Under the pieces are notes generated by a model. It was not told the origin of the DNA, did no database searches, and was given only the letters and a program-made list of their open reading frames with translations. DNA of 64,000 bases from an uncultured delta proteobacterium (GTDB lineage: Bacteria; Desulfobacterota; Binatia; UBA9968). Positions 10,998 through 36,275 of the stretch are shown here, piece after piece. Numbering within the stretch: position 1 is the first letter of the stretch; each line of letters starts with the position of its first letter. The stretch is taken from assembly GCA_963727625.1 (NCBI GenBank), contig CAVSHR010000005.1, forward strand, positions 896,001 to 960,000, in the 5' to 3' direction. The translations under genes and the position numbers were made by a program.

Positions 10998-11396
10998 TCA
11001 ACTTGCCGGAAAGTAATCAACCATGATCTGCGGCACTTTCCGATAATGCTCGTCCGTGGACACGACGCGCAAGCCGTATTCCATTGCGCTCGCTGCGATC
11101 CAAATATCGTTGGTCGGTATCGGCGTGCCCGCGTGCCAAAGGGAATTTAGGATGACCCCATATCTTTCGGCAGTTTCCTCGGTAACTTCAAGGACCCCAA
11201 CGCGAGGCGAGGCTAGAAATCGGTGCAGCTCGTCTTCATTCTTACGCCTTCGATTTCCTCGAATAAAACCCGCGAAGAGTTCACCGATAACCACGGAATT
11301 TAAAAAAATTTCTTCATTCGCTCTGATGGCTGCGCAAATGTCGGCGTGCCTCCGCATGAATGCTGAATATGCTGAAGTATCTAACAAGACGCGCAC
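10998..11396 (-). CDS. vapC: Type II TA toxin, VapC/PIN-domain ribonuclease
   Basis: LLDTSAY, GEL, PTNDIWIAASA, STDEHY acidic PIN residues. Confidence 0.92.
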   Translation of the reverse strand: MRVLLDTSAYSAFMRRHADICAAIRANEEIFLNSVVIGELFAGFIRGNRRRKNEDELHRFLASPRVGVLEVTEETAERYGVILNSLWHAGTPIPTNDIWIAASAMEYGLRVVSTDEHYRKVPQIMVDYFPAS

Positions 11397-11399
11397 TAT

Positions 11400-11663
11400 C
11401 TATTTCCACAATTCGGGATCGATGGATCGTTGAGCGGTTAAAGCCTTATCGAACGCGGCAGCCTCTTTTTTCGTCCATGACCCAGCCAGAGCATCGAGAT
11501 CATCGTGCCCCTTTGTTCTAACCCGCTTCTTTTTGTGGCCCTCGGCCTTACGCTCCAACAAGCTGATCACCGCTTTGTTAATGCTCGTGCGTTGGCGGTC
11601 CGCTTCTTTGCGCACGACCTTTTCAATCTCCGGGGGCAAGTTTCTTAATGTGATCGCCTTCAT
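11400..11663 (-). CDS. Ribbon-helix-helix antitoxin (VapB/FitA-like)
   Basis: MKAITLRNLPPE...SINKAVISLL; HDDLDALAGSW; directly upstream of vapC. Confidence 0.85.
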   Translation of the reverse strand: MKAITLRNLPPEIEKVVRKEADRQRTSINKAVISLLERKAEGHKKKRVRTKGHDDLDALAGSWTKKEAAAFDKALTAQRSIDPELWK

Positions 11664-11862
11664 ATTCACCTCGCCATAGTGCATCACCGGTGCGCCATAA
11701 TGATGCATCCTAGCACGATGGATTGGCCGGAGCCAAATACGACAGCCCAGGAATTGAATTTTACAAACCGATTATGCCAGCGGCCCTTGCCATCGACACG
11801 CCACTTGGGCTAAGACAGAAACGAATTCCGACGCAAAAAAATTCAAGCAAGAGGCGGGAACC

Positions 11863-15576: not shown

Positions 15577-15620
15577 TTTATTTTCGAATCTCGTCGCGAC
15601 AGTGCCGGAGCCATCGCATC

Positions 15621-15881
15621 ATGCCTACAATTAGCGTATTCTTCGGTATAATCATTCGCATGTTTTACCGCGATCATAATCCACCTCATTTTCATGCAGA
15701 GTATCAGGGACAAAATGCTACGTTTGATTTCGATGGCAAGCTCCTCGAAGGTGAAATTGATTCCCGAACCGCCAAATCACTTATCAGAAAATGGGCAAGG
15801 CTACACAAATCTGAGCTCAACGAAAATTGGCAGAAAATGCGTCAGAGGAAAGAATTCACGAGAATTGAACCTTTGAAATAG
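15621..15881 (+). CDS. DUF4160 family protein
   Basis: MPTISVFFGIIIRMFYRDHNPPHFHAEY signature. Confidence 0.9.
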   Translation: MPTISVFFGIIIRMFYRDHNPPHFHAEYQGQNATFDFDGKLLEGEIDSRTAKSLIRKWARLHKSELNENWQKMRQRKEFTRIEPLK

Positions 15882-15889
15882 GAGTTGCA

Positions 15890-16159
15890 ATGCTGCCTTC
15901 AGTTACAAGGGCTAAGTACGTTAGAGACTTTCTGATCGAGGTTAAGTTTAACGACGGCACGAAAAAAGTGATTGATTTTGCACCCTGGCTCACGGGTCCA
16001 ATTTTCAGACCTTTAAAGAGTAAAGACTATTTCAAGAAATTCTTCGTTGACGGCCCTACCATCGCCTGGCCGAACGGGGCCGACATCGCGCCGGAAACTC
16101 TTTATGAAGCGGAGGCCGTAAAAAGAGCCAGTGAATCAAAACTCCGACATGCGGGTTAG
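15890..16159 (+). CDS. DUF2442 family protein
   Basis: FNDG...GPIFRPL...F...TIAWPNGADIAPETLY; usual partner of DUF4160. Confidence 0.9.
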   Translation: MLPSVTRAKYVRDFLIEVKFNDGTKKVIDFAPWLTGPIFRPLKSKDYFKKFFVDGPTIAWPNGADIAPETLYEAEAVKRASESKLRHAG

Positions 16160-19012: not shown

Positions 19013-19110
19013 CAGCGAAACGATTCACCGCCATCCTGCTTTTCCTCTTCGGCGTCATGGCTCCATTCGCCCATACGCAAAAACCCCGGAAGACTTGCTC
19101 GAAGAGACCG

Positions 19111-19132
19111 GAAAAGGGGACACGAGCCTTTT
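19111..19132 (+). repeat. RAYT-associated REP-like motif GAAAAGGGGACnCGAnCCTTTT
   Basis: Copies at 19111-19132, 19664-19685, 20059-20080 (reverse) and 26915-26936. Confidence 0.75.
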
Positions 19133-19244
19133 TATGTTTTCGAATCATGGTGATTCATTTCAAAACACAGTCAGCGGGATCTAAACATAAAATATTCCAT
19201 TTAACGACCTTCGATAAGGCAGCATGAACATAAAAGGGCAAACC

Positions 19245-19637
19245 ATGAAGCTTAAACATATATTATTGTCGTTCTTATTGACTGGATGCGCGGTGGGCGC
19301 AATAGACAGGATTCAGAGAGCTTCACAGATTCCTCCTCGTCAATTGACTGTTAATGAGCAACAGATTATTGAAGAGGCTGTTAGTAGATCTCTGATCGAT
19401 CCGTACTCTGCTGCATTCGGACATATGCCACTCCGATCAAAGGAAGGGTATTGTGGAGTCGTCAATGCCAAGAATCGCATGGGAGGGTACGCAGGAAAGG
19501 CATTCTTTCTAGTTAAACCAGTCTGGAATGAAGACGTAATGCGTGGTGCTGTTCTGATAGGTATTGATCGAGGTGGCGACGCTGGTGCCATTGGAATTAT
19601 GTGCGTCAAGATGGGATTACTTCCAGAGGGTAAATGA
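19245..19637 (+). CDS. Hypothetical lipoprotein
   Basis: MKLKHILLSFLLTG-C lipobox; L.DP.SA.F and YCGVVNAKNRMGGYAG motif; lower GC than flanks. Confidence 0.75.
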   Translation: MKLKHILLSFLLTGCAVGAIDRIQRASQIPPRQLTVNEQQIIEEAVSRSLIDPYSAAFGHMPLRSKEGYCGVVNAKNRMGGYAGKAFFLVKPVWNEDVMRGAVLIGIDRGGDAGAIGIMCVKMGLLPEGK

Positions 19638-19663
19638 TTTCGGCGGCTCGTTCGGGGGAAAAG

Positions 19664-20080
19664 GAAAAGGGGACTCGAACCTTTTCACATTTGCCTATCT
19701 GTTAATCTCGCGACCTTTCTAGGACGACCGCGAGGCTGAAGTGTGTATCTCAGTCCGAGCGCAACCGCGATCCGAGTCGTCCAATTTTCCGAACCAAAGG
19801 GCGTACCGCGGTTTACGCATCTCCGCAGCGCTTCGGCCTCGGCATCAGTTTGAACTTCGTTCACCCAACCGACCCAAACTTCCGGCCTGTCGCCGCGACC
19901 AGGGTCCGTTTCAAACGCAACATAGTCTTCCCGTTTGGAAAACAGTTCGTTTCGGCCATTCGCCCGATTCAGCGGGTGATAAACCACGCCACCCAGAGCC
20001 ATACGCGCTCGCCGAGGCATGCGCCACGCTCTAATCAAAGGCATCAATTTCGTCAAGGAAAGGTTCGCGTCCCCTTTTTC
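19664..20080 (-). mobile_element. Internally deleted RAYT (REP-associated Y1 transposase) element bounded by inverted REP-like motifs
   Basis: ORF 20020-19685 joins the RAYT N-terminus (MPRRAR..GVVYHPLNRANGR..LF..EDY) directly to the C-terminus (RGTPFGS..W...RGRPRK) with no HUH core; inverted motifs at both ends. Confidence 0.8.
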
Positions 20081-20963
20081 TTCCCCTTTCCGGATGGATC
20101 GTCAAGCCGTATTTGGCCAGTCGCTGCGGCAAGACCGCCAACACCCGCCGTGCGTCTTGTTCATGAGTGAATCCCATGACAAAGTCGTCCGCGTAGCGAA
20201 TGAGAAAGGCCTTACCACGTAAACGCGGCTTAACCACCTGCTCTATCCACTGGTCCAGCACATAGTGCAGGAAGATGTTTGACAGCACAGGTGAAATCAC
20301 TCCGCCTTGGGGAGAACCCGCTTGCGGGTACGTCACTGCGCCGTGTTCGAGAACTCCCGCTCTAAGCCACTTGCCGATCAAACGCCTCAGCACACCATCA
20401 CGCATCCTATGGCCGATCAATCTTCGCAGGTGCGCATGATCCAGAGTGTCGAAAAACTTCCGGATGTCCACTTCCAATATCCAGCCCCCGTGGCTATCCA
20501 TCACTTGTTTCCATAACGACTCAAGCGCCTGGTGCGCCGAACGCCCGGGCCGAAAGCCGAACGAACAGTCATAAAAATCCTGCTCGTAGATCGGCGCCAG
20601 CACCATGGCGACGGCCCGCTGCAGAACCTTGTCCTCCAGCGTCGGTATCCCGATGGGACGCGTATCGGTAGCCGAATTCCCTTTCGGAATGTGTACCCGT
20701 CGCACGGGCGGTGCTCGGTACGTACCGGCTTTGACCCAGCCTAATAGCTCCTCAAGATTACTTTTCAGGTTCGCTTCGTAGTGCTCGGCAGTGATGCCGT
20801 CCACCCCGGCAGCCGCATCCTTGCGCGTGCGCCGGTAGGCCTCCTCTAGCCAGTCGATGTCCATTAGGTGCGCCAGGGAAGTGAATCCCATCTGCGGTGA
20901 CTGCTTGGCCAGCTTTGCTACCCGTTGCTGTTTCGTTGACACGGTACTCGAATTTCTATGCAT
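20031..20963 (-). pseudogene. ltrA: Group II intron reverse transcriptase/maturase, C-terminally truncated
   Basis: [59 protein letters not shown]; breaks after GLTIHPE into the REP-like motif. Confidence 0.9.
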
Positions 20964-21571
20964 TCGCCGTCTTTCCCAACAACGGTTCCACAATCCGACG
21001 CCTCGCTTCCCTCCACGCGGTCCGGGAGGTCCCGTTCCCGCCTTTCTCAGGTACTATCAAGGCGCTACGACTTGCTGCCGTCCTTTCACGCCGCGCTTGG
21101 TTTCCTTCGCTTGGCGCTGCCACTCGGCGCGCCTTGGGCTTCGCTCCCGCCGTGTCAAAGCGCAACCACGGCGGGCCGGGAGTACTTTATTTTCGGCCAC
21201 TCCTGAGACCGGCTGGATCCGGTGGAGACAACAGCATCTCCCAAGTTCCTGGGAAACCTCCATTGTGCCTATGCCCGGTTCTGCGACTCCGGTGTGACGG
21301 CTCACTCCTCACCCTAACGGTGCGCGCCGCATCGCCCCCGTGAGGGGAACGACGAAGGCTCACAGTTGAAAACTTTCGAAGCTCAATAGCCGGGCCTTGG
21401 CACTCGCTGTCTACGCTTCGCCGCGTGGGTTGCCCCAGCGCAGCGCAAGACTCGCTTCCGGGAGCGGGTTAGGCCTTCCCGGACAGGCTTGTTTACCTGC
21501 AAGGTTTCGCTGAAAGGTTTCAGAGCTGCTTTCTACATCTCTTCCTCCTTTCCCAAGTTTTCTTGGCGCGA
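20081..21571 (-). mobile_element. 3'-truncated group II intron (5' ribozyme domains plus RT ORF; no domain X, DV or DVI)
   Basis: 5' end (T)CGCGCCAAG near 21571; DI-like elements (GAAGCGTAGACAG, GAGCTTCGAAAG); EBS1 TCCCCT is complementary to the flanking AGGGGA; RT ORF downstream. Confidence 0.85.
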
Positions 21572-21844
21572 TCCCCTTTTCTCACTCCCCCTTTTCTCAC
21601 CCCCCGCAGTGATCGCAAAGCGACCTTGGCAAGTTCACCGGCTGTGGTGTAGTGTGGAGAGACAATTGAGAGACTGTCCAATGAAAGTTAAAATGCCATA
21701 ACGAAGACGCGTAAAGGCGTCGAGAGCGTCGGCTATTCGCATCTCGATTACCTCTCCACATGAGAAAAGGGATTGCTGGTTTGGGCTGTACAGGAGGCGG
21801 CGGAGATATAAATCTCGCACCAATACTCCATCGGCTAGGAGACC

Positions 21845-24568
21845 ATGAAGAAGACAAGTAAAAGCTTGGGGCGCACCGGCGAAATAAGTAGTTCAGCTGC
21901 AACTCTATCAGACCGTTTGACCGCTGCCCTAGATCTGCCTAATGGAGCGCGGTTTTACCGCTGTGCATTGCAGATCAACCCGTTTGCGTATTTACATCGG
22001 CATAATAAGAAAACATCCTTCCTCAAAGAAGCCGAATATAATGCGGCTATCATCGCCGCCTGCCAAGAAATTGGAATCGAAGTCATAGGCGTTACGGATC
22101 ATTATCGGGTTGAAGAATCAAAGAGCCTTGTGCAAGCGGCACGAGCCGCCGGCCTGTTCGCCTTCAGCGGCTTTGAGTCTGTAACCAAGGACGGTGTACA
22201 TTTTCTTTGTTTGTTCGATCCTGAGAAGGACAATGCGCTCGAACGTTTTATTGGTGAGTGCGGCGTTCACGACATGGCAGCTGCATCACCAACGGGAGCT
22301 CTCGATTCCATTGAACTCCTTAACCAAGCGAAAGACTGGGGTGCTATTTGCGTGGCCGCACATGTAGCGGGCGAGGGAGGTCTTTTGAACAGGCTCAAGG
22401 GGCAGCCTCGCATCAACGCTTGGAAGTCGCCGGAACTTCTTGCTTGTGCTCTTGCGGGTCCAGTTTCCGATGCCCCTGAGAACATTCGTCCGATCCTTGA
22501 AAACCGAGACTCGCAACACAAGCGTAGTCGACCTGTGGCTGTACTGAACACTTCAGACGTGAACAGCCCCGAGGATCTAAAAAAGAACGGTGCGTCCTGT
22601 TTTCTTAAGATGTCGAATATTTCTGTTGAGGCTCTACGACAAGCCTTTCTTGATCCCGAATCGCGCATTCGCCTACATAGCGATTCTCAAGCGGAGCCTC
22701 ACGCAGAATTTCTGGCTCTGACATGGGAGGGCGGATTCCTCGGGGGCACATCCGTTCATTTCAACGCCAACTTGAACGTCTTGGTTGGCGGTAGAGGAAC
22801 CGGAAAGTCGACCATGGTCGAGAGCATACGCTACGCGCTTGGCCTCGAACCGCTCGGAGAAGACGCGCGTAAGGCCCACGAAGGAGTGATCCGGTACGTA
22901 CTTCGCTCCGGGACGAAAATATCTTTGCTAGTGCAATCGCATAAGCCTTCCGCGCGTTGCTATACCATTGAGCGGTCAATCCCTAATCCACCGATCGTAA
23001 AGGACGAAGCCGGGGAAGTCCTGACGCTCTCGCCGAAAGACGTAATGCCGGGAGTCGAGGTCTTTGGACAACACGAAATATCCGAACTCACCAAAAGCAG
23101 AGAGAAGCTGACGATGCTTCTGGAACGGTTCGTCGACCGCGATCCAACGTTGTTGGGACGAAAATCGAAACTCAAACTGGACCTTCAACGCTCCCGAGGC
23201 CGTATCGTGGATGTTCACCGCGAGATGAAAGCTCTCGACGAACGGCTTGCCGCGCTTCCGGGCTTGGAGGAGACACAGAAACGTTTCCAAGAAGCCGGGC
23301 TTGAAGAACGCCTAAAGGAGAAAAGCCTGCTTATTCGGGAAGAGCGAGTTTTTACGAATGTTACGGAGCGACTTGAACCTGTCCGAGCGCTCCACCGTGA
23401 ATTGGTCGAGTCGTTGCCGCTTGATACTGCCTTCGTTTCTAAAAAAGCTTTGGAGGGACTCCCGAATGCAGCGATTCTAACCGAAATCGGAACGATCTTG
23501 GGCTCCTTGAGTACAAAACTCAAGGCAATTGCCGATCAGCTCGCAAAGGCACTGACAGAAGCGGACAGCTCTGTTGGGGGAACCAAATCCCGGTGGGACA
23601 AGAAACGCAAGGTTATAGAAGAAGTATATGAAAAGCTTCTACGGGAGCTTCAGAAATCGAAGATCGACGGGGCTGAGTTCATCCGGCTACGCAAACAGAT
23701 TGAAGATCTACGTCCTTTGAGAGAAAAAATAGACGCGCTGAAACGTGACCTGGCCAGTCACGAGGCAAACCGCCGCAAGCTGCTCGCGGAATGGGAGGAC
23801 GTCAAGGCGAGTGAGTATCGCGAGTTTGAAAGTGCAGCGAAAAAGGTTTCTCGTCAGCTCCAGGAGCGGGTGCGGGTAGAAGTCGCCATGGCAGGAAATC
23901 GTGAGCCGTTGGAGCAGCTCTTACGTGAGTTGGGTGGAAACTTGAGCGCTGCCTTGGAGCGTCTACGGTCGCTGGGAGAACTTTCGCTGCCGGATTTGGC
24001 GCAGCGCTGCCGGGAGGGCAAGGAGGCTCTGATCAAACAGTATGGACTGCCAGCAGGTTCGGCCGAGAGAATTGCCCAAGCGGACCTAGACTTCTTAATG
24101 AAGATTGAGGAGCTGGACCTTCCGGCGACGACGAAGATTGAATTGAACACTGCGCCGGATGGTGAACCTGCCACGTGGCAGACGTTGGAAGCGCTATCGA
24201 CTGGGCAGAAGGCAACAGCTGTCCTATTACTTCTCTTACTGGAATCGGAAGCTCCTCTTGTGGTCGATCAGCCGGAGGACGACCTCGATAACCGCTTCAT
24301 TACGGAAGGTGTGGTACCAATCATGCGACTGGAAAAGCGGCGGCGTCAGTTTGTGTTTTCAACCCACAATGCGAACATTCCTGTGCTCGGCGATGCCGAG
24401 CTGATTCTGGGCCTGGCCGCATCGGGCGAAGGAAGGGAGGGCCACGCCAAAATCGCTCCCGAACATATGGGATCAATCGACTCCAAACCTGTGCGCGAAC
24501 TGGTAGAAGAAATTCTCGAAGGAGGCAAAGATGCCTTCGAGATGCGCCGTTCCAAATACGGGTTCTGA
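21845..24568 (+). CDS. PHP-like domain fused to an SMC/ABC-type ATPase with coiled coil (Ppl-like architecture; candidate defence protein)
   Basis: N-terminal GVTDH, FE, VHFLC, AAH, SD; Walker A GGRGTGKS; long coiled coil; LSTGQK signature; VVDQPEDDLDN Walker B/D-loop; STHN. Confidence 0.85.
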   Translation: MKKTSKSLGRTGEISSSAATLSDRLTAALDLPNGARFYRCALQINPFAYLHRHNKKTSFLKEAEYNAAIIAACQEIGIEVIGVTDHYRVEESKSLVQAARAAGLFAFSGFESVTKDGVHFLCLFDPEKDNALERFIGECGVHDMAAASPTGALDSIELLNQAKDWGAICVAAHVAGEGGLLNRLKGQPRINAWKSPELLACALAGPVSDAPENIRPILENRDSQHKRSRPVAVLNTSDVNSPEDLKKNGASCFLKMSNISVEALRQAFLDPESRIRLHSDSQAEPHAEFLALTWEGGFLGGTSVHFNANLNVLVGGRGTGKSTMVESIRYALGLEPLGEDARKAHEGVIRYVLRSGTKISLLVQSHKPSARCYTIERSIPNPPIVKDEAGEVLTLSPKDVMPGVEVFGQHEISELTKSREKLTMLLERFVDRDPTLLGRKSKLKLDLQRSRGRIVDVHREMKALDERLAALPGLEETQKRFQEAGLEERLKEKSLLIREERVFTNVTERLEPVRALHRELVESLPLDTAFVSKKALEGLPNAAILTEIGTILGSLSTKLKAIADQLAKALTEADSSVGGTKSRWDKKRKVIEEVYEKLLRELQKSKIDGAEFIRLRKQIEDLRPLREKIDALKRDLASHEANRRKLLAEWEDVKASEYREFESAAKKVSRQLQERVRVEVAMAGNREPLEQLLRELGGNLSAALERLRSLGELSLPDLAQRCREGKEALIKQYGLPAGSAERIAQADLDFLMKIEELDLPATTKIELNTAPDGEPATWQTLEALSTGQKATAVLLLLLLESEAPLVVDQPEDDLDNRFITEGVVPIMRLEKRRRQFVFSTHNANIPVLGDAELILGLAASGEGREGHAKIAPEHMGSIDSKPVRELVEEILEGGKDAFEMRRSKYGF

Positions 24569-24571
24569 AAC

Positions 24572-25774
24572 ATGACGACGCATACGGAATTGATGGACAT
24601 CATTGCAAACGGGGAAAGCTCCGGAGTCGAGTTCAAACGAGACGTTCTGCAAAATCATGACCTAGCTAAGGAGCTGGTGGCGTTCTCGAACCTGAGCGGC
24701 GGAGTGGTACTCCTAGGCGTGGATGATGACCGAACCATATCAGGGATCACACGACCCGATCTGGAAGAATGGGTGCTGACCACATGCCGCGACAAGATCA
24801 GACCTAGCATTATTCCTTTTTTTGAGGTTGTTCGAAACATCGAACCAGGAAAAAGTGTCGCCATTGTACGTGTGACGCGCGGCTTCGATGTTCACAGTTT
24901 GTGGCACAACAATCGTAATACCTATTACATACGCGTCGGAACGCAGAGCAGGGAACCGAGCCCGGAGGAGCTCGGCCGACTCTTTCAGCAGCGCGGCTCT
25001 TTCCGCGCGGAACTGCGGCCTGTCTCTGGTGCGACCCTTGCCGATTTGGATCGCCGCCGGCTTCGCGATTATTTCGATCGGATCCGTCAACAGGCAATGC
25101 CTTCTGACGAGGATGAGACGGGTTGGCAAATCCTGTTGGCCAATACAGAGATCATGACTGACGAAGGCGTAACGGTAGGCGGGATGCTCCTGTTTGGTCA
25201 GAGACCTAACCATTTTCTTCCACAGGCCGGCATCGACGCCGCCTCGTTTCCAGGAACTGAAAAGGACTATGCTGCTCGAGAACGGCTCGCTCTCCGTGGT
25301 CCCATGACACCGCTATTTAGCGCTGCAGCGGAACTCGTGGAAAATGGCCTGGTCGAGCAGGCGTTAGACTTTGTACGGCGCAATACACCCGTTACTGCGG
25401 TGCTTGAAAACGGTAGGAGAATCGACAAGCCGACCTATCCGCCTGAAGCACTTCGTGAAGGGGTCGTGAACGCTCTGATTCACCGCGACTACCTTCTTTC
25501 GAGTACGGACATCGAACTGGTTGTATACAGCAATCGGCTAGAGATTATCTCACCAGGCAGGCTACCGAATGGCATTACCCCAGACCGAATGCGCGCGGGA
25601 ACACGCGCAGCCCGAAATCAGCTCTTGAAAGAGGTTATGCGCGACTATCACTATCTAGAACATATGGGAATGGGCGTCCCTCGTAAGATTATTCAGGGGA
25701 TGAAAGCCCATAACAATACCGAACCGGAACTCATTGAAGACCAGGAACGCTTCATTCTTCGCCTGTTCGCTTAA
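24572..25774 (+). CDS. AlbA_2 (Schlafen-like) domain + HATPase_c_4 (RecG C-terminal-like) protein
   Basis: GESSGVEFK, ELVAFSNLSGGVVLLGVDD, YYIRVG; REGVVNALIHRDY, SPGRL, RNQLL, EHMGMG; starts 3 bp after the ATPase stop. Confidence 0.88.
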   Translation: MTTHTELMDIIANGESSGVEFKRDVLQNHDLAKELVAFSNLSGGVVLLGVDDDRTISGITRPDLEEWVLTTCRDKIRPSIIPFFEVVRNIEPGKSVAIVRVTRGFDVHSLWHNNRNTYYIRVGTQSREPSPEELGRLFQQRGSFRAELRPVSGATLADLDRRRLRDYFDRIRQQAMPSDEDETGWQILLANTEIMTDEGVTVGGMLLFGQRPNHFLPQAGIDAASFPGTEKDYAARERLALRGPMTPLFSAAAELVENGLVEQALDFVRRNTPVTAVLENGRRIDKPTYPPEALREGVVNALIHRDYLLSSTDIELVVYSNRLEIISPGRLPNGITPDRMRAGTRAARNQLLKEVMRDYHYLEHMGMGVPRKIIQGMKAHNNTEPELIEDQERFILRLFA

Positions 25775-25939
25775 GATCGTATGATGTGATCGACGATCGC
25801 TTTGCGGCTTGCAACGGGGACCGCGCATGGAAGACTCATGGGCGATTACCGTGTCGAATAGAAACGCACTCTTGTCCAGGGCGACGAAGCAAGGAGAGAC
25901 CTGGAAGTCAGACCCAGCCGGTTTCCAAGCCCTCTCACT

Positions 25940-26578
25940 TTAAGGTACCTGAGGTGCCACAGGCGTTGGCGTCGTAGGTCCCTTAGGCGTTGGAAACTCA
26001 GGAAGCTTTCTACGAGGGTGATTTAGAACTGTATCAATTATTGTATCGATATTTGATAGGCTCACGAGCAGTTGTGGCCATGCCGCATAGATCGAGTAGA
26101 TATGAAAATTCTTTTCGTCAGCAGCTAAATTCAACCACTCACGGGCTTTGTCAGGGTCAGAATGAAAGACAACGCCATTGAAGAAGAGATTTATAGCGTC
26201 CGCAACAAGCAGTGGCTTGTTGCCCACAAAATAGTGTGATGGACAACTCTTAAGAGTGTTCGTCCAGTTTTGCCTTGCAGCCCTTATCCACGGCAGCAGC
26301 TTTTTATCGATACCTGCCCTTTCAAGTATATTGCACACCCGGTACAGATTGATTTTTTCACGTGGTGCATAGAACTGTCGCAGACTGACTAACGCGGAAC
26401 GAAACTCATCCATCTTAAAATTTTTTATTTTTGATGTGAGCCCGCGGCCAGGTAGTATCTTGATGGAAATTGAAATCGCGTTTTGACGCCTTTTAAATAG
26501 TCGAACCTTGCGAATTATATCCATCTGATTGAGAAATAGTTTCAATGTTTCTTTTTCGCCGGGTGATAACATGATCAA
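25940..26578 (-). CDS. Hypothetical protein (possibly HEPN-like, unverified)
   Basis: 212-aa low-GC ORF with RBS GAGG; helical character; LRQF..E.I and NGVVFHSD motifs; lies downstream of the tRNA-like RNA. Confidence 0.7.
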   Translation of the reverse strand: MIMLSPGEKETLKLFLNQMDIIRKVRLFKRRQNAISISIKILPGRGLTSKIKNFKMDEFRSALVSLRQFYAPREKINLYRVCNILERAGIDKKLLPWIRAARQNWTNTLKSCPSHYFVGNKPLLVADAINLFFNGVVFHSDPDKAREWLNLAADEKNFHIYSIYAAWPQLLVSLSNIDTIIDTVLNHPRRKLPEFPTPKGPTTPTPVAPQVP

Positions 26579-26756
26579 AACCTCATAGGAGACTGTGAGA
26601 AAAGGAATTGAACAAACTCACATAAAAAGAAACCCGGGCTCTTTTATCGGTGCTTCTGCAATCGCTTCGATATGCTTTTGCCCGCACCTTGAAATTCGAA
26701 GTGAAGTTTATTGGCAAAACTTAGCCAGAGACAACCGAAATTCCCGATGGTTTTTA

Positions 26757-26874
26757 TGGTGCACGGGACGAGATTCGAACTCGCACGTCCTTTCGGACAC
26801 GTATTTGCAACAAGTTCCGACTGCGATCAGAACCTCTTACAAATACGCGCGTCTGCCGGTTCCGCCACCCGTGC
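26757..26874 (-). ncRNA. tRNA-Leu-like RNA (118 nt) with the anticodon arm extended into a ~21-bp hairpin
   Basis: GCACGGG/CCCGTGC acceptor + A73 + CCA; D arm GCG-GAACCGGCAGA-CGC; variable arm GTCC-GAAA-GGAC; T arm GCGAG-TTCGAAT-CTCGT; 38 nt in place of the 7-nt anticodon loop. Confidence 0.9.
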
Positions 26875-26914
26875 ACAATGGAAAAATGATTTTGCCATAT
26901 TTTGCGTGGGCAAG

Positions 26915-27021
26915 GAAAAGGGGACGCAAACCTTTTAGCTCTGCGTATCTGTTAATCCCACAACCTTTTTAGGACGACCGCGGGGTTGCAGTCTATATTT
27001 CACTCCGAGCGCATCCACGAT
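26915..27021. repeat. Diverged direct repeat of 19664-19771 (REP-like motif + RAYT 3' end remnant)
   Basis: gaaaaggggac..cctttt..tatctgttaat..aggacgaccgcg..tccgagcgca..cgat is shared by both copies. Confidence 0.85.
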
Positions 27022-27107
27022 TATCAACAGATTTTTTTGTTTGAACTCGACGTTCAACTCCTTCGCCAAGACAGTTGCTTGACCGAGACCAAAAAGCCGA
27101 AATCGGA

Positions 27108-28514
27108 CTAAGGCAAGTCCGCGCCTTTCGGCTGATTTTTGAAATTCTCTGGGTTCAAGTTTTGCGTCAGGCGGAAAACGCCTTCCACGACGTGGCGGCG
27201 TAGTTCGACTTCGATCATCAACGTTTGGTTTGGCTCAAAGTATCGCTTGAGCGCGGCGAAAGTGCCTTTGTGTTCGGCCACGGTGTAGTAGGCGAAACCC
27301 TCGGCCGGTCGTGCCGTGATCCGTACGCCAAATTTTCCTGCCAGCTCGGGCTTGCTGAACCAGTCGTTCATCACATCGTAGTCGATATAATAGGTCAGCT
27401 TTCCTGGGCTACGCTGATTGCGCTGGCGATCCACGAAGAAACCGGGAGGCAAATGGTTTGGGTCATAATCCGGTCCCGCAGTGAAGAGCACGTCGTAATC
27501 GGAAAGATTGTTGCCACGGTCATCGATGATCCTAATGACGAGCATGCAGTACCGGTTAGTCACGAAGGTCCGCCTAAAGACGAACAACTGTTTCACCGCT
27601 TGCTTGCGCTCATCTGTTTGAGTCTTTGTCGTGAGATCCTCTAGGTCCTTGACCAGCCGATTGTAAGCCGCAGCACTGCCCACTTCCAGGCAACGCAAAA
27701 CCCACTGCACCGTGGGGTGCGTGCCGTCATCGTCTGCTGTCACGCTGGCGAGGATGCCGATGGTCGTGCCAGAATGAGATCGCCCCGGCAAAACGCCGAG
27801 TGCGGTTTTTGCGCTGCGATCATCCTTTTTCAGCGCGAGGGCGCCATCGGTCTGCACCAGCCGAATCAGGCCGTAGTTCAAGTTTGCCGCAGCGACCCGC
27901 ACGACTCCATCCGACCCCGCCTCATCGGTGTAGGCATTAAGGTTGTCGTAGAAGGCGCGGTCAATCCTCTGCCCTGTGAGAACGAAGGGATACAACCTTG
28001 CAGCCACGCAGTCGTAAGCGAGCCAGTCACGATTGAGTTCCCAGCTTTGGTCGCTGCCCAGCTCCAGCCAGTCGAGAACGCCTGTGCCAGGTTCGACACC
28101 GTCCGCAGAAAACTTCATCCGCGCAATGCGGCCTTTGCCAAGTTGCGCGAGCGCCGAGCCATGATTCGCCGGCGCGAGCATGACCAAGTGTCCGAGTGGA
28201 CACTTGCTGAGTTTGCCACGATAAAACAGGTCTATCCATTTTCGCACCACCGGCCCACCCGTGGAATGCGTCACGCAAGCGAATTTTTCATCCTTGGTGA
28301 GCTTCGGCAGCACCTCCGCGGCGATGGCTCGCTGCATTCCACGCGCGATATCATCGACTTTCACCTCGTCAGCGAAACTCACATATTTGGCGAGGTAGAG
28401 ATGCGTGATCTGAAGATCGAGTTTCGGAGACGCGTTTTTGACAAGTGCGGCAGGCAGACCACCGTAGGTATTCGTGTTGGTAACACTCCAGCCATGAACG
28501 AAGACAATAAGCAT
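27108..28514 (-). CDS. Alpha/beta-hydrolase (lipase/phospholipase-like)
   Basis: VFVHGWS, THSTGG nucleophile elbow, LAPANHGS, SDGVV, SHSG. Confidence 0.85.
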   Translation of the reverse strand: MLIVFVHGWSVTNTNTYGGLPAALVKNASPKLDLQITHLYLAKYVSFADEVKVDDIARGMQRAIAAEVLPKLTKDEKFACVTHSTGGPVVRKWIDLFYRGKLSKCPLGHLVMLAPANHGSALAQLGKGRIARMKFSADGVEPGTGVLDWLELGSDQSWELNRDWLAYDCVAARLYPFVLTGQRIDRAFYDNLNAYTDEAGSDGVVRVAAANLNYGLIRLVQTDGALALKKDDRSAKTALGVLPGRSHSGTTIGILASVTADDDGTHPTVQWVLRCLEVGSAAAYNRLVKDLEDLTTKTQTDERKQAVKQLFVFRRTFVTNRYCMLVIRIIDDRGNNLSDYDVLFTAGPDYDPNHLPPGFFVDRQRNQRSPGKLTYYIDYDVMNDWFSKPELAGKFGVRITARPAEGFAYYTVAEHKGTFAALKRYFEPNQTLMIEVELRRHVVEGVFRLTQNLNPENFKNQPKGADLP

Positions 28515-28772: not shown

Positions 28773-29073
28773 GCGACGGCAGTCGGCGGCGAACTCATCG
28801 AGCGTGTAAGCCACGCGATTTCTCCTGACGTAATTGGAAATTCAATCAACTTGCGGCCCAACTATTCTGCAGACAACTCCGGAACGTGCTCGTCTTCATA
28901 CTTTTCGATAAGTACGCCGACAATTTCCATAAGCGAAGCGAGAGGGTGCGATTCGTCTTCGCCCACTTCATCGACCAGTCGATCGAGCAAGGAAACCAAT
29001 CTGTCGTATTCAGCTGCGGTGTGGGGGACGAATACCGTGTCGGCCAGCGAAGACCACGCGTTTACGGTTTTGC
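28773..29073. repeat. ~300-bp direct repeat, copy 1 (copy 2 at 30746-31045)
   Basis: Near-identical stretch covering the antitoxin fragment and the first codons of the cupin gene. Confidence 0.9.
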
Positions 29074-29092
29074 TATCGTCAAATCCTCGCAT
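28862..29092 (-). pseudogene. Duplicated HigA-like antitoxin fragment (no HTH)
   Basis: EYDRLVSLLDRLVDEVGEDESHPLASLMEIVGVLIEKYEDEH, identical to 30834-31064. Confidence 0.7.
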
Positions 29093-30235: not shown

Positions 30236-30787
30236 TCAGGCGGCGCCGCGAAAGTTGGGGCGTTTCTCCACCACCATGGTACCCGCCTCGCTGTTGTAGC
30301 GGCCGCGCGCGATGTTTTCTAGATTTGTACCCGTGACGCGGATGAAACGCCCGCCGGCGGGGTAGGCGATGGAGTGGATGGCGCGGTTCTGGAAGATACC
30401 GGCCTGGCCGCGCTCCATGCGGTAGCTCTTCGCCTTTTCTATGGTCGCTTTGCCGGGAACCGAGCCGTCATCCGTACGCTTCCACTCGCTCATTTCAGTA
30501 TGTTTGACCGCCTGGCCGTAAATTGCCCAGGAGTCGCCATGATCGTGCGGTCCGCCGGCATAGTCCCGGTCCATGATATGCGCCAGGACCTGGAAGCCTA
30601 GCTCCGGGTCCTCATAGAGTAAATTTGTGCCAACGCTCGCGTTCGGCCCGCAATGGGCGACGACGAAATCCTCGTTCATCAGCAAGTCCTGCAATCTTTT
30701 CCGCACCGTTTCGCGCCCCCCCGGACCTGGGTCGGCCTTGAGGATGCGACGGCAGTCGGCGGCGAACTCATCGAACGTGTAAGCCAT
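30236..30787 (-). CDS. Cysteine dioxygenase-like cupin protein
   Basis: LYEDPELGF, PHDHGDSWAIYG, AIHSI. Confidence 0.8.
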   Translation of the reverse strand: MAYTFDEFAADCRRILKADPGPGGRETVRKRLQDLLMNEDFVVAHCGPNASVGTNLLYEDPELGFQVLAHIMDRDYAGGPHDHGDSWAIYGQAVKHTEMSEWKRTDDGSVPGKATIEKAKSYRMERGQAGIFQNRAIHSIAYPAGGRFIRVTGTNLENIARGRYNSEAGTMVVEKRPNFRGAA

Positions 30788-30833
30788 GCTATTTCTCCTG
30801 ACGCATCGGAAATTAAATCAACTTGCGGCCCAG

Positions 30834-31064
30834 CTATTCTGCAGACAACTCCGGAACGTGCTCGTCTTCATACTTTTCGATAAGTACGCCGACAATTTCC
30901 ATAAGCGAAGCGAGAGGGTGCGATTCGTCTTCGCCGACTTCATCGACCAGTCGATCGAGCAAGGAAACCAATCTGTCGTATTCAGCTTCGGTGTGGGAAA
31001 CGAAAAGGGTGTCGGCCAGTGAAGACCACGCGTTTACGGTTTTGCCAACATCGAGATTCTGCAT
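30834..31064 (-). CDS. HigA-like antitoxin, N-terminal part only
   Basis: E.EYDRLV.LLD.L.DEVGEDE.HPLA.L....LIE.YE; downstream of higB; C-terminal HTH absent. Confidence 0.7.
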   Translation of the reverse strand: MQNLDVGKTVNAWSSLADTLFVSHTEAEYDRLVSLLDRLVDEVGEDESHPLASLMEIVGVLIEKYEDEHVPELSAE

Positions 31065-35423: not shown

Positions 35424-36275
35424 ATGGCCCGGCCCTTACGGATCGAATTCGACGGCGCGCTTTATCACGTCACCTCGCGGGGAAATAACCGCAAAGCAAT
35501 CTACAAGGATGACGCTGACCGAGAGCTGTTTCTCAAAATTCTCGCTCGGGTCGCGGAGCGCTTTAACTGGATTTGTCACGCCTATTGTTTGATGAACAAT
35601 CATTACCACCTGGTCATCGAAACTCCGGACGGTAATTTATCTAAGGGGATGAGACAGCTCAATGGAGTTTATACTCAGTCATTCAACAAGCAGCACCGCC
35701 GTGTTGGCCATGTCTTTCAGGGACGATTTAAAAGCATCCTGGTCCAGAAAGACAGCCACTTTCTGGAAGTCTGCCGCTACGTCGTGCTTAACCCGGTGCG
35801 AGCGAAGATGGTCCGCCACCCGCGGCAATGGAAATGGAGCAGCTACCGCGCAACGGCAGGCAACACTCGCCCTCACGGTTGTCTCACCGTTGATGAAGTC
35901 CTTAGTCATTTTGGGCAAAGAAAATCCGCCGCGCGACGGAACTATGCCGAGTTCGTTCAAGCGGGGATTGGCAGTGCTTCGATATGGGATGGTCTCGAAG
36001 CACAGAGCCTTCTGGGTGTTGAAGGCTTCGCCGAGGGCCTACGCCAGCACGTGACGGGGAAGCGAAAGATCCGAGAGATTCCAAAAGGTCAAAGATACGC
36101 CGGACGACCCACCTTAGAGAAGATCTTCTCATCAAGAATTCGCCAAAAACAAATGAGAGACCAACGGATCGCAAAGGCTGTCACCGAATACGGCTACAGC
36201 CAAATGGAGTTGGCGAGCCACTTGGACCTACACTACTCGACAATCTGCCGGATAGTGGCAACATCCGGTGAGTAG
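35424..36275 (+). CDS. REP-associated tyrosine transposase (RAYT, Y1/HUH) with C-terminal HTH
   Basis: MARPLR, YHVTSRGN, AYCLMNNHYHL (HUH), GHVFQGRFK, YVVLNP, WSSY. Confidence 0.92.
   Translation: MARPLRIEFDGALYHVTSRGNNRKAIYKDDADRELFLKILARVAERFNWICHAYCLMNNHYHLVIETPDGNLSKGMRQLNGVYTQSFNKQHRRVGHVFQGRFKSILVQKDSHFLEVCRYVVLNPVRAKMVRHPRQWKWSSYRATAGNTRPHGCLTVDEVLSHFGQRKSAARRNYAEFVQAGIGSASIWDGLEAQSLLGVEGFAEGLRQHVTGKRKIREIPKGQRYAGRPTLEKIFSSRIRQKQMRDQRIAKAVTEYGYSQMELASHLDLHYSTICRIVATSGE

Follow-up and report, generated by a model that had tools for sequence, protein, structure and literature searches.

Phage tRNA look-alikes that do not decode, such as the T4 species 1 RNA, have been known for decades, and to our knowledge no function has been assigned to them. 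In type III toxin-antitoxin systems, i.e., ToxIN, CptIN and TenpIN, a small protein gene is directly preceded, in the same orientation, by the gene of a structured RNA. A bacterial Y RNA, YrlA (RF02553), mimics tRNA: as described by Chen et al. (2014; PMC4201824), it joins a tRNA core, made of T arm, D arm and acceptor-type stem, to a long helix where the anticodon arm would be. The allo-tRNAs are encoded by irregular tRNA genes of soil bacteria and, as reviewed (PMC7609411), combine 8/4 or 9/3 acceptor/T stems with a normal anticodon loop. Here, we analyzed a tRNA-like gene and the ORF downstream of it, both located in a stretch of 64,000 nucleotides that is referred to as the window (Table 1). 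As the initial annotation had reported, the two genes are co-oriented with 178 nt between the CCA and the ORF, the ORF is low in GC (43.5%, with 41.6% for the spacer and 56.2% for the window), and it converges on an ATPase/AlbA_2 gene pair. That annotation saw in this arrangement a possible module in which the RNA neutralises or guides the protein, alone or together with the convergent pair. The results below suggest that RNA and ORF are probably neighbors by accident, not a toxin-antidote pair; the reading we tentatively prefer is that a non-decoding tRNA-like RNA and a stand-alone protein of a helical family are separate cargo of a mobile or defence island, with no dedicated module between them.

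Table 1. Features of the island and its right flank, in window coordinates.
Feature	Coordinates	Strand	Evidence
Group II intron, left island edge	19661..21500	minus	RF02005 131.7 bits; D1-D4 at 21277-21492
TrlF-family AAA-like ATPase, 907 aa, PHP + SMC/ABC-type ATPase, Ppl-like	21845..24568	plus	NF045780, PADLOC
AlbA_2 (Schlafen-type) + HATPase_c_4 protein, 400 aa	24572..25774	plus	PF04326 E 1e-19, PF13749 E 4.2e-20
212-aa protein, uncharacterised ~200-aa family	25940..26578	minus	TTG start, family alignment, AlphaFold model
Spacer between RNA gene and ORF, 178 nt, AT-rich	26579..26756	minus	fold z = -0.23, no significant structure
tRNA-Leu(UAA)-type tRNA-like gene, 118 nt	26757..26874	minus	Rfam RF00005
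Elongated anticodon arm, 31 nt beyond normal length	26800..26847	minus	fold, strand-energy comparison
Orphan group II intron 3'-terminal fragment, ~110 nt	26912..27021	minus	82% identity to 19661-19771
DUF7379-like protein	27108..28514	minus	counterpart in relative G029, 85% nt identity

The tRNA-like gene was matched by RF00005 at 26760-26874 on the minus strand in an Rfam search (38.2 bits with a gathering score of 29, E 8.5e-6), with all 71 positions of the model covered and CCA encoded directly 3' of the match, at 26757-26759. The acceptor stem has 7 bp, the D arm is of type II, the variable arm is long and the T arm carries the loop UUCGAAU; the sequence also keeps U8, A14, G18G19 and A73, so that the acceptor, D and T arms of a cloverleaf and its conserved tertiary nucleotides are all present. 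A 5-bp anticodon stem with a 7-nt loop that presents an anticodon is absent: the anticodon loop holds 33 nt relative to 2 in the RF00005 model, and ARAGORN made no tRNA call for this gene. The elongated arm forms 21 pairs (17 Watson-Crick and 4 G-U) with one G-G mismatch and a CGCA tetraloop, and because this 21-bp helix stands in place of the anticodon loop, the RNA should be unable to read codons. The RNA as a whole folds with a minimum free energy of -61 kcal/mol (z = -5.37), and none of 200 shuffled sequences folded equally well. The 21-bp helix forms only on the sense strand, where the arm has an energy of -26.1 kcal/mol compared to -10.3 kcal/mol in antisense, and the four DNA-level mismatches that still pair in it are all G-U on the tRNA sense strand. 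tRNA-Leu(UAA) accounted for nine of the 14 best canonical matches to a covariance model of the RNA, and relative to the consensus of that tRNA, pair 3-70 carries a compensated change.

In E. coli, leucyl-tRNA synthetase depends on A73 and the tertiary core, and the anticodon is not read. The RNA described here may be derived from tRNA-Leu(UAA) and appears to retain what RNase P, a CCA end and leucyl-tRNA synthetase need; if expressed, it would be made as a stable RNA, possibly one that can be charged with leucine, and it would be of the same general kind as the phage tRNA-like stable RNAs, e.g., those of T4. Both T4 species 1 RNA (rnaC, 139 nt) and rnaD likewise derive from tRNA: an acceptor-type stem closes them, the T arm is canonical, and long hairpins occupy the place of the decoding parts. 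Both lie on mobile DNA (for rnaC, the fold is a computed one). Unlike rnaC, the RNA here keeps the D and variable arms of a Leu-type tRNA in full, along with CCA, and it lies alone on a chromosomal island, whereas rnaC is found in a phage tRNA cluster; model R1 gave only 12.4 bits for rnaC (E 0.059), and no homology is thus detectable. The tRNA core and the long helix set out above for YrlA are shared as well, whereas YrlA is permuted in topology, with its 5' and 3' ends on the long helix and the acceptor closed; the present RNA shows the reverse, an open acceptor ending in CCA and a closed long helix. Like the allo-tRNAs, this is a non-standard tRNA-like gene of the kind found in soil bacteria; unlike them, it has 7/5 stems and no anticodon loop.

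We further analyzed how far this RNA is distributed. The source genome gave 46 matches to RF00005, among which the tRNA-like gene is the only one that bears an insertion and has the lowest score; its elongated-arm sequence is unique there, and the helix does not recur as a repeat. Genes for all five Leu isoacceptors and for tRNA-Tyr are already present in the genome. BLAST found no counterpart in 60 relatives, and the covariance model found no such gene in 150 genomes of the phylum, where the best non-self match reached 75.5 bits compared to 146.9 bits for self and the lengths among the matches listed were 83-89 nt. An exact 21-nt piece of the helix had no match in viral contigs, and in phages and plasmids blastn matched the RNA only over 31-32 nt, at sites that in the five phage records coincide with annotated tRNA-Leu genes and in the plasmid have no annotated feature. 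With up to three mismatches allowed, the window holds no second copy of the tRNA 3' end such as integration would leave.

This uniqueness would also be expected if the tRNA-like gene were a decaying tRNA-Leu pseudogene on mobile DNA, functionless after a palindromic insertion, with the ORF as unrelated cargo. Indeed, the gene could be a dying one: the low score, the position amid intron debris, the failure to find a promoter and the lack of any need for it in a genome with a full Leu set all point in this direction. Against this stand the restriction of the pairing mismatches to G-U on the sense strand, with the strand difference in energy noted above, the integrity of every stem and universal tertiary position, including the compensated 3-70 pair, and the absence of repeats of the helix elsewhere in the genome, so that we consider decay somewhat unlikely. 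It is scarcely credible that the gene is instead an intron-containing tRNA gene from which 31 nt are spliced out. The sequences UUGUAAG after a 5-bp anticodon stem and GUUGCAA before its 3' strand, both with U33 and a purine at 37, would allow a cut at 37/38 that leaves a UUGUAAA loop with the anticodon GUA, yet there is no bulge-helix-bulge, a group I or group II intron would have to be far longer than this segment, and the helix is continuous but for the one G-G mismatch; moreover, GUA would make a Tyr tRNA of a Leu-type body in a genome that already has tRNA-Tyr(GUA).

The 212-aa ORF is a genuine gene; its product belongs to an uncharacterised family of ~200-aa proteins that comprises 445 cluster representatives. 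The likelier start is an ATG at 26572, preceded by GAGG 8 nt upstream and giving 210 aa, which is also the start of the database protein P0001. The gene occurs once in the genome, and the family is present in six of 401 genomes of the phylum. No named domain was found in the ORF with Pfam, NCBIfam, PADLOC or PHROGs, the last of which matched none of 129 family members, and a sequence profile search of the PDB gave nothing below E 0.19. By tblastn, the ORF had no match in plasmids and phages; in viral contigs, the A6 query gave one marginal match of 22 residues and the A1 query none. Across the 129 members, R67 and H139 are invariant (H139 in 129/129), and the invariant Arg precedes the invariant His by 72 residues. 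The motif NGVVFHSD, which the initial annotation had likened to a HEPN site of N-x4-H form, is present as residues 134-141: the family has N at position 134 in 97 members, Y in 30 and another residue (H, S) in two, never R, and D at position 141 in 112. Thus, the motif and its invariant His stand, while the canonical HEPN R-x4-6-H is absent in all 129 members, the site being N/Y-x4-H, and the sequence tests of a HEPN relationship were negative.

These tests gave concordant results. No family member matched HEPN_AbiU2 (PF18734) at E <= 0.01, a threshold at which six families were matched, and at E <= 5 PF18734 was not among the best 25 of 84 families; hhalign of the family against six AbiU2 proteins gave a probability of 0.3%, and the best hmmsearch score linking the family to HEPN was 2.4 bits. 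The AlphaFold model of the ORF (pLDDT 95.1, pTM 0.87) is a helical bundle with a beta-hairpin at residues 36-52. A fold comparison had been proposed as a check on the nuclease reading, and its outcome was divided: Foldseek against the PDB with both ORF models found nothing at E <= 0.001, and a wide fold search placed a HEPN toxin and HI0074 within its top five (8xdj_A with Z 7.4, rmsd 3.4 and 114 residues aligned; 1jog_A with Z 6.8) and also returned 6m6u_I with Z 5.4, all at Z-scores that designed and generic helical bundles equalled. In the ESM Atlas, 25 of the 30 nearest named clusters carry HEPN_AbiU2, the best of them with a score of 0.91 and 176 of 256 features shared and with HEPN_AbiU2 on 11% of its members; the link of PF18734 to the family arises solely from this language-model neighborhood. 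The family resembles the HEPN superfamily (HEPN_AbiU2 and HepT-type toxins) in its size of ~200 aa, its all-helical bundle, its invariant His and Arg and its defence-island contexts, and differs from it in lacking R-x4-6-H and any link by Pfam, hmmsearch or hhalign. A HEPN fold of the modeled protein is possible. In the reading preferred here, the protein stands alone and belongs to a helical family that has no name and keeps one Arg and one His invariant, and our best guess is that it might act as a HEPN-like, metal-independent RNase or as an RNA-binding effector in defence or RNA-damage contexts.

If RNA and protein formed a unit, homologues of the ORF might be expected beside similar RNAs. 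Homologue loci were gathered with the 24-sequence family subgroup A6, and the elongated tRNA-like gene was found in none of these 24 loci nor in the further locus L044 (25 sources). Among the homologues that have context, the closest (L021, 71% identity) shares the coding sequence only, corresponding to window positions 25992-26562, and its 7.7 kb contain no tRNA or YrlA. The immediate neighbors of the homologues vary and include a serine recombinase, an AAA_13 ATPase, TIR, SIR2, Mrr, a methylase, transposases and Ro60, with no partner gene common to the loci except between two from Solirubrobacterales. The check whether tRNA-like RNAs lie near homologues gave a positive outcome of another form in two loci from acidobacterial MAGs (L071 and L076), in which rsr (Ro60) flanks the family member on one side and a YrlA-like RNA on the other, next to an array of tRNA genes. 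Here, the family members, which share 27-30% identity with the ORF and score 190 and 184 bits with the family profile, are encoded 86-90 nt downstream of rsr, and in L071 the YrlA-like RNA begins 18 nt past the stop of the family gene (RF02553, 34.6 bits). The main YrlA, upstream of rsr, scores 64.6 bits in L071 and 53.5 bits in L076, and the arrays beside YrlA hold 11 and nine tRNA matches, respectively. Because they are from one lineage, with 75.6% nucleotide identity over the block, the two loci count as a single independent case. In the other 22 loci, L021 included, a tRNA mimic is absent; in two further homologue loci, a canonical tRNA-Ala lies 0.7-1.3 kb upstream of the family member. 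Searching 14 family-bearing genomes in full with RF02553 gave only 24-31 bits, with none within ~3.5 kb of the family gene by contig position, at a threshold that also gives matches in nine of 14 control genomes. RF02553 had no match at E <= 1 in 25000-28000 of the window, its best score in the source genome was 20.4 bits, inside a tRNA cluster, and no TROVE or vWA_Ro60 domain of a Ro60 gene was found in that genome. Based on the rsr/YrlA setting of the two acidobacterial loci, a functional tie of the ORF family to tRNA-shaped RNAs is conceivable. The initial annotation had named a fold that is not nuclease-like, together with homologues that never neighbor tRNA-like RNAs, as what would refute its reading; with a possible HEPN fold and this one lineage, the findings do not fully amount to that.

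The surroundings of the two genes are those of a strain-specific island of ~8 kb, about 19.1-27.1 kb of the window, which also carries a group II intron and the TrlF ATPase/AlbA_2 pair. Between 19107 and 27123, the genus relatives have no counterpart save intron fragments and the TrlF gene of G012. The ATPase scores 502.4 bits with NF045780 over model positions 1-944, relative to a cut-off of 350, and E 1.9e-37 with the PADLOC model Ppl; a literature search on TrlF found nothing relevant. The DUF7379-like gene is the first rightward gene with a counterpart in a relative and so marks the right edge, and a gap of 37 nt separates the orphan intron fragment from the tRNA-like gene downstream of it. 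Neither a promoter-like nor a terminator-like site was found in the spacer.

Could the RNA nevertheless belong to the ORF product, as an anticodon-less mimic that decoys, neutralises or directs a HEPN-like RNase whose targets are tRNA-shaped RNAs? The short co-oriented arrangement fits this, as it fits a type III system, with a structured RNA upstream of a co-oriented small gene in a defence-type island; the rsr/YrlA loci beside tRNA arrays and the HEPN leads from the fold search and the ESM Atlas are further points in its favor. Opposed to it are the single lineage in which that setting occurs, the 22 loci that have the family member and no tRNA mimic, among them the 71%-identical one, and the source genome without Ro60; in addition, the locus shows no repeats or processing-type architecture, and we found no sequence link of the ORF to any RNase family. 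We therefore regard such a module as unlikely, and in its type III form, the version initially put forward, it finds no support here: Tandem Repeats Finder (minimum score 30) returned no rows in 25700-27200 for the tandem repeats that are the hallmark of type III antitoxins, the ORF matches no ToxN, CptN, TenpN or AbiQ family, no terminator was found before the ORF, and the pairing of RNA and protein is not conserved.

A partnership of the RNA with the convergent TrlF/AlbA_2 pair was considered too, e.g., one in which it diverts a Schlafen-type nuclease as a decoy or serves that nuclease as a sensor. Mammalian Schlafens cleave type II tRNAs, e.g., tRNA-Leu(UAA), and a Schlafen-type AlbA_2 gene lies 1 kb from an RNA with a tRNA-Leu(UAA)-type body on a common island. 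This partnership is very improbable, given that the RNA is on the opposite strand with the ORF between it and the pair, and that G012 has the pair without a tRNA, the elongated tRNA-like gene or a family member in its 10.8-kb locus (L044), which speaks equally against an RNA-protein module tied to the pair. The broadest version, in which the 118-nt RNA is a working and probably leucine-chargeable mimic that acts as decoy, immunity factor or trigger together with the 212-aa or AlbA_2 nuclease in anti-phage defence, is improbable as well. If it were true, the ~200-aa family would represent a new class of proteins dealing with RNAs of tRNA shape, and the presence of a member between Ro60 and Y RNA, beside a tRNA array, in two acidobacterial genomes would be explained.

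With RNA and ORF as unrelated neighbors, the reading judged most likely, the finding is a modest curiosity. A chromosomal, non-decoding tRNA look-alike whose Leu-type body is intact, whose CCA is encoded and whose anticodon gives way to a clean 21-bp helix is still a simple test object for charging, for titration of tRNA-cutting nucleases and for supply to non-ribosomal amino-acid transfer. The 212-aa protein, for its part, stands for a sizeable family that has no name (445 cluster representatives), with a confident model and an invariant Arg/His, found in defence islands and in one lineage inside a Ro60/Y-RNA/RtcB RNA-repair locus, and the family is a candidate for a new RNA-acting effector.

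Several minor features of the island were also resolved. The ~110-nt direct repeats at 19661-19771 and 26912-27021 were considered as att sites and ruled out, as they belong to a group II intron 3' end with five copies in the genome. Likewise, the 320-aa reverse transcriptase is not that of a retron; it belongs to the group II intron, whose D1-D4 RNA lies upstream, and its ORF (20031-20993) scores 278.6 bits with TIGR04416, under the cut-off of 300. A 123-aa ORF at 19685-20056 overlaps this reverse-transcriptase ORF, which may reflect a frameshift. Three DNA sequencing runs contain small shares of the locus as short contigs, none of which spans both ORF and RNA; one of these contigs is 98% identical over 26029-26411 and divergent beyond.

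The tRNA-like gene and the low-GC ORF of the initial annotation were both confirmed in place, by an Rfam match and by ORF listing, the ORF having a GC content of 43.5% against 56.2% for the window. Both lie on the minus strand, and the gap between them, described as about 180 bp, is a spacer of 178 nt (41.6% GC) that is unstructured (fold z -0.23) and holds no tandem repeats; the ORF converges on the ATPase/AlbA_2 pair, as had been noted. The tRNA-like gene has a type-II tRNA body of leucine type: 71 of 71 positions of the Rfam tRNA model RF00005 are matched, with 33 nt in the anticodon loop vs 2 nt in the model. ARAGORN called no tRNA in the window, this gene included. A 136-nt stretch containing the gene folds at -61 kcal/mol (z = -5.37), more stably than all of 200 shuffles. 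When a covariance model (R1) built from this single sequence and its cloverleaf was run against other genomes, tRNA-Leu(UAA) accounted for nine of the 14 best canonical matches, and relative to these the acceptor pair 3-70 shows a compensated change. The anticodon arm comprises 21 pairs (17 Watson-Crick, 4 G-U), one G-G mismatch and a CGCA tetraloop, with a folding energy of -26.1 kcal/mol in the sense and -10.3 kcal/mol in the antisense orientation. The T arm also has a 16-nt reverse-complement match elsewhere in the window, where no tRNA was called.

Features of the window and parts of the tRNA-like gene
Feature	Position	Strand	Details
PIN toxin and FitA-like RHH antitoxin	10998-11708	-	ordinary small two-gene module
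16-nt T-arm-like word	15583-15598	+	TTCGAATCTCGTCGCG; after molybdopterin dehydrogenase gene
DUF4160/DUF2442 pair	15621-16159	+	ordinary small two-gene module
Group II intron	19661-21500	-	RF02005, 131.7 bits
TrlF ATPase gene	21845-24568	+	907 aa; NF045780, 502 bits
AlbA_2/HATPase_c_4 gene	24572-25774	+	after ATPase gene; ORF convergent on it
ORF	25940-26578	-	212 aa from TTG
tRNA-like gene	26757-26874	-	RF00005 match at 26760-26874, 38.2 bits, E 8.5e-6 (gathering score 29)
Acceptor stem			7 bp
D arm			GUGGCGGAACCGGCAGACGC; same in the genome's own tRNA-Leu genes
Variable arm			4 bp
T arm			loop UUCGAAU
3' end			A73 and encoded CCA (26757-26759)
Orphan intron 3' end			110 nt; 37 nt upstream of tRNA-like gene
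Repeats of ~300 nt	28773-29080, 30746-31052		identity 94-95%; one 76-aa ORF per repeat, unmatched in Pfam
IS200-type Y1 transposase	35424-36275	+	283 aa

The RNA is a true oddity, and none of the searches produced a relative of it. Its long-helix sequence has no second occurrence in the genome, where the gene is the lowest-scoring of 46 RF00005 matches and the sole one with an insertion; elsewhere the genome encodes the full set of five Leu isoacceptors as well as tRNA-Tyr(GUA). BLAST against 60 related genomes, including the unpublished genus relative G005, found no relative of the elongated gene, the D-arm region alone matching over 24-31 nt. Among the R1 matches listed from 150 phylum genomes there was likewise none, all being 83-89 nt long (136 lower-scoring matches fall outside the list), with 146.9 bits for the gene itself and 75.5 bits for the best other match. 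Neither phage and plasmid collections nor an exact-word scan of viral contigs yielded a relative. The closest known systems include phage-encoded stable RNAs of tRNA-like shape, themselves unexplained, among which T4 rnaC, folded for comparison, has no homology to R1, and the bacterial tRNA-mimic Y RNA YrlA (RF02553), which has the same parts in permuted order. Narrow keyword searches, which may have missed some, found no papers on such an RNA type or on the protein family of the ORF. Three long 'tRNAs' of 90-96 nt called by ARAGORN in the source genome (C4:1165010-1165102, C9:19714-19803 and C7:171496-171591) are unmatched by the Rfam tRNA model and appear spurious, and tRNA-Asn is absent from the ARAGORN list for this assembly.

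The ORF is a member of a genuine, unnamed protein family. Its likelier start is not the TTG but an ATG at 26572, which follows GAGG and is also where the database protein P0001 starts. A word-indexed search returned only six close relatives; a full HMM search with their alignment returned 445 cluster representatives (E <= 0.001), nearly all of them 180-215 aa long. R67 and H139 occur in all 129 members of an alignment (A3), D141 (87%), E74 (84%) and R102 (79%) are conserved, and position 134 is N in 75% and Y in a further 23%. Neither Pfam, NCBIfam, PADLOC and PHROGs nor a search of PDB sequences by profile gave the family a name. A 447-nt contig from the public sequencing run X1 is 98% identical to part of the ORF (26029-26411) and departs from the window at 26411, inside the coding sequence, so that in a close relative the 5' part of the gene or its surroundings differ.

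The suggestion that the ORF is HEPN-like was examined by structural comparison and by sequence. AlphaFold (A3 as input; pLDDT 95.1, pTM 0.87) predicted a helical bundle with one beta-hairpin. Foldseek gave no match with this model; an independent fold search ranked 8xdj_A, an AMPylated HEPN toxin, second (Z 7.4, rmsd 3.4, 114 residues) and HI0074 (1jog_A) fifth (Z 6.8), values that designed and generic bundles equal and that, for helical bundles, mean little below a Z of about 13. HEPN_AbiU2 is carried by 18 of the 30 ESM-Atlas clusters nearest to the ORF and by 25 of the 30 nearest named ones, the best such cluster scoring 0.91, with 176 of 256 features common to the ORF and HEPN_AbiU2 on 11% of its members. 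In the sequence tests, hhalign of A3 against six AbiU2 proteins from phylum genomes returned a probability of 0.3%, hmmsearch at most 2.4 bits, and PF18734 matched none of the 129 members at E <= 0.01 and was absent among the best 25 of 84 families at E <= 5. Because these tests failed and the canonical R-x4-6-H motif is missing from the family, the HEPN likeness is a lead rather than a finding.

We compared 24 homologue loci: a metagenome contig (L021) whose family member is 71% identical to the ORF, five loci from the phylum, where six of 401 genomes carry the family, and 18 from named MAGs, retrieved with a conserved subgroup alignment. L021 and the window have the coding sequence alone in common; L021 contains no tRNA or YrlA at E <= 1, and its family gene adjoins a large serine recombinase and a Toprim gene. 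No Rfam family reached its gathering score in the five phylum loci (51 kb). Across the 24 loci and L044, the 10.8-kb TrlF/AlbA_2 locus of the genus relative G012, R1 detected no elongated tRNA-like gene, its only four matches at E <= 1 in these 25 sources being ordinary tRNAs of about 75 nt. Gene neighbourhoods vary among the loci and are of the kind seen in mobile and defence DNA (among others AAA_13 ATPase with PD-(D/E)XK nuclease and SNF2 helicase, DDE transposases, kinase, TIR, SIR2, Mrr, DNA methylase, relaxase plus HerA/TrwB-like ATPase), and no partner gene is common to the loci except between two from Solirubrobacterales. tRNAs lie upstream of and co-oriented with the family gene in 4 of the 18 MAG loci; in L073 and L074 this is an ordinary tRNA-Ala at a distance of about 0.7-1.3 kb.

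Homologues are sometimes placed among tRNA mimics, at two of the 24 loci: L071 (a Pyrinomonadaceae MAG) and L076 (Acidobacteria bacterium 28-1), whose rsr-plus-family blocks are 75.6% identical and which are therefore counted as one lineage. L071:289-4685 and L076:474-7647 have in common the order tRNA array, YrlA, rsr, family gene, second YrlA-like RNA and RtcB. The arrays give 11 and 9 Rfam matches, respectively, and each holds a possible allo-tRNA of 92-93 nt whose anticodon is UAU. The YrlA matches (64.6 bits, E 5e-13 in L071; 53.5 bits, E 8e-10 in L076) fall just below the gathering score of 69; each forms its own closed hairpin of acceptor type, and they are not artefacts of adjacent tRNAs, a caveat raised in PMC4201824. 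The rsr product, Ro60, carries TROVE and vWA_Ro60 domains (521 and 528 aa), and the family gene follows 86-90 nt downstream on the same strand. The second, smaller YrlA-like RNA lies 18 nt past the stop codon in L071 (34.6 bits) and farther from the family gene in L076 (32 bits). RtcB is intein-containing and Pfam-confirmed in L076, and its presence in L071 is suggested by 82-91% nucleotide identity to that gene. Against the family profile, the two family proteins reach 190 bits (L071) and 184 bits (L076); their identity to the ORF is 27-30%, and the L076 protein, of 178 aa, is shortened at its C terminus. The source genome contains no Ro60, no YrlA and one RtcB, on another contig. YrlA was absent from seven further loci at E <= 0.01; in 14 whole genomes with the family, RF02553 reached only 24-31 bits, a threshold that also gives matches in 9 of 14 control genomes, and none of these possible matches lies within about 3.5 kb of the family gene.

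We tentatively favour, at a little under an even chance, the reading in which RNA and ORF are cargo items independent of each other. In it, the RNA would be a non-decoding derivative of tRNA-Leu(UAA), still able to be processed, and the ORF protein an effector that stands alone and is perhaps HEPN-like. Because the anticodon is ignored by LeuRS, the RNA may still be charged with leucine. The main rivals are that the tRNA-like gene is a dead pseudogene, which is rather unlikely, and that the RNA and the ORF protein form a true pair, which is improbable. No promoter or terminator was detected. All four non-Watson-Crick pairs that still pair in the long helix are G-U on the tRNA strand, as expected from selection on RNA and not on a DNA palindrome, an argument that is modest with four pairs only (about 1 in 16 by chance). 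The Ro60 lineage, where family members lie beside tRNA mimics, speaks for a link between the two. The TrlF/AlbA_2 pair occurs in G012 without a tRNA, R1 match or family member; together with the unpaired homologue loci and the lack of tandem repeats, this argues against both the type III toxin-antitoxin-like module that had been proposed and its extension to a four-part system with the convergent pair. The initial observation stands and its interpretation is partly supported; the RNA-protein link, unproven, is unlikely on present evidence.

Window 19107-27123 is without counterpart in the genus relatives (30 genomes, G005 included), save for pieces of intron and the G012 TrlF gene; at its right edge, the match to the DUF7379 gene of the relative G029 ends with the stop codon (27108-27124). 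This island contains the group II intron, TrlF ATPase, AlbA_2 protein, ORF, tRNA-like gene and orphan intron 3' end. The intron reverse transcriptase (320 aa) scores 278.6 bits to TIGR04416, under the cut-off of 300, and a second, 123-aa ORF overlapping it in another frame likely reflects a frameshift. The intron 3' end has five copies in the genome, and an ORF-less copy of the intron lies at C11:384118-385013. The TrlF-family PHP/SMC-like ATPase and AlbA_2 (Schlafen-type)/HATPase_c_4 genes form a two-gene cassette (21845-25774 (+)) that recurs in G012 and is a candidate defence pair, related through its ATPase to the single-gene Ppl system. Elsewhere in the window, the Y1 transposase has a weak C-terminal helix-turn-helix match (HTH_23, below the Pfam cut-off), and the ~300-nt repeats flank a glyoxalase-type gene and a 183-aa gene, with copies in many genus relatives.
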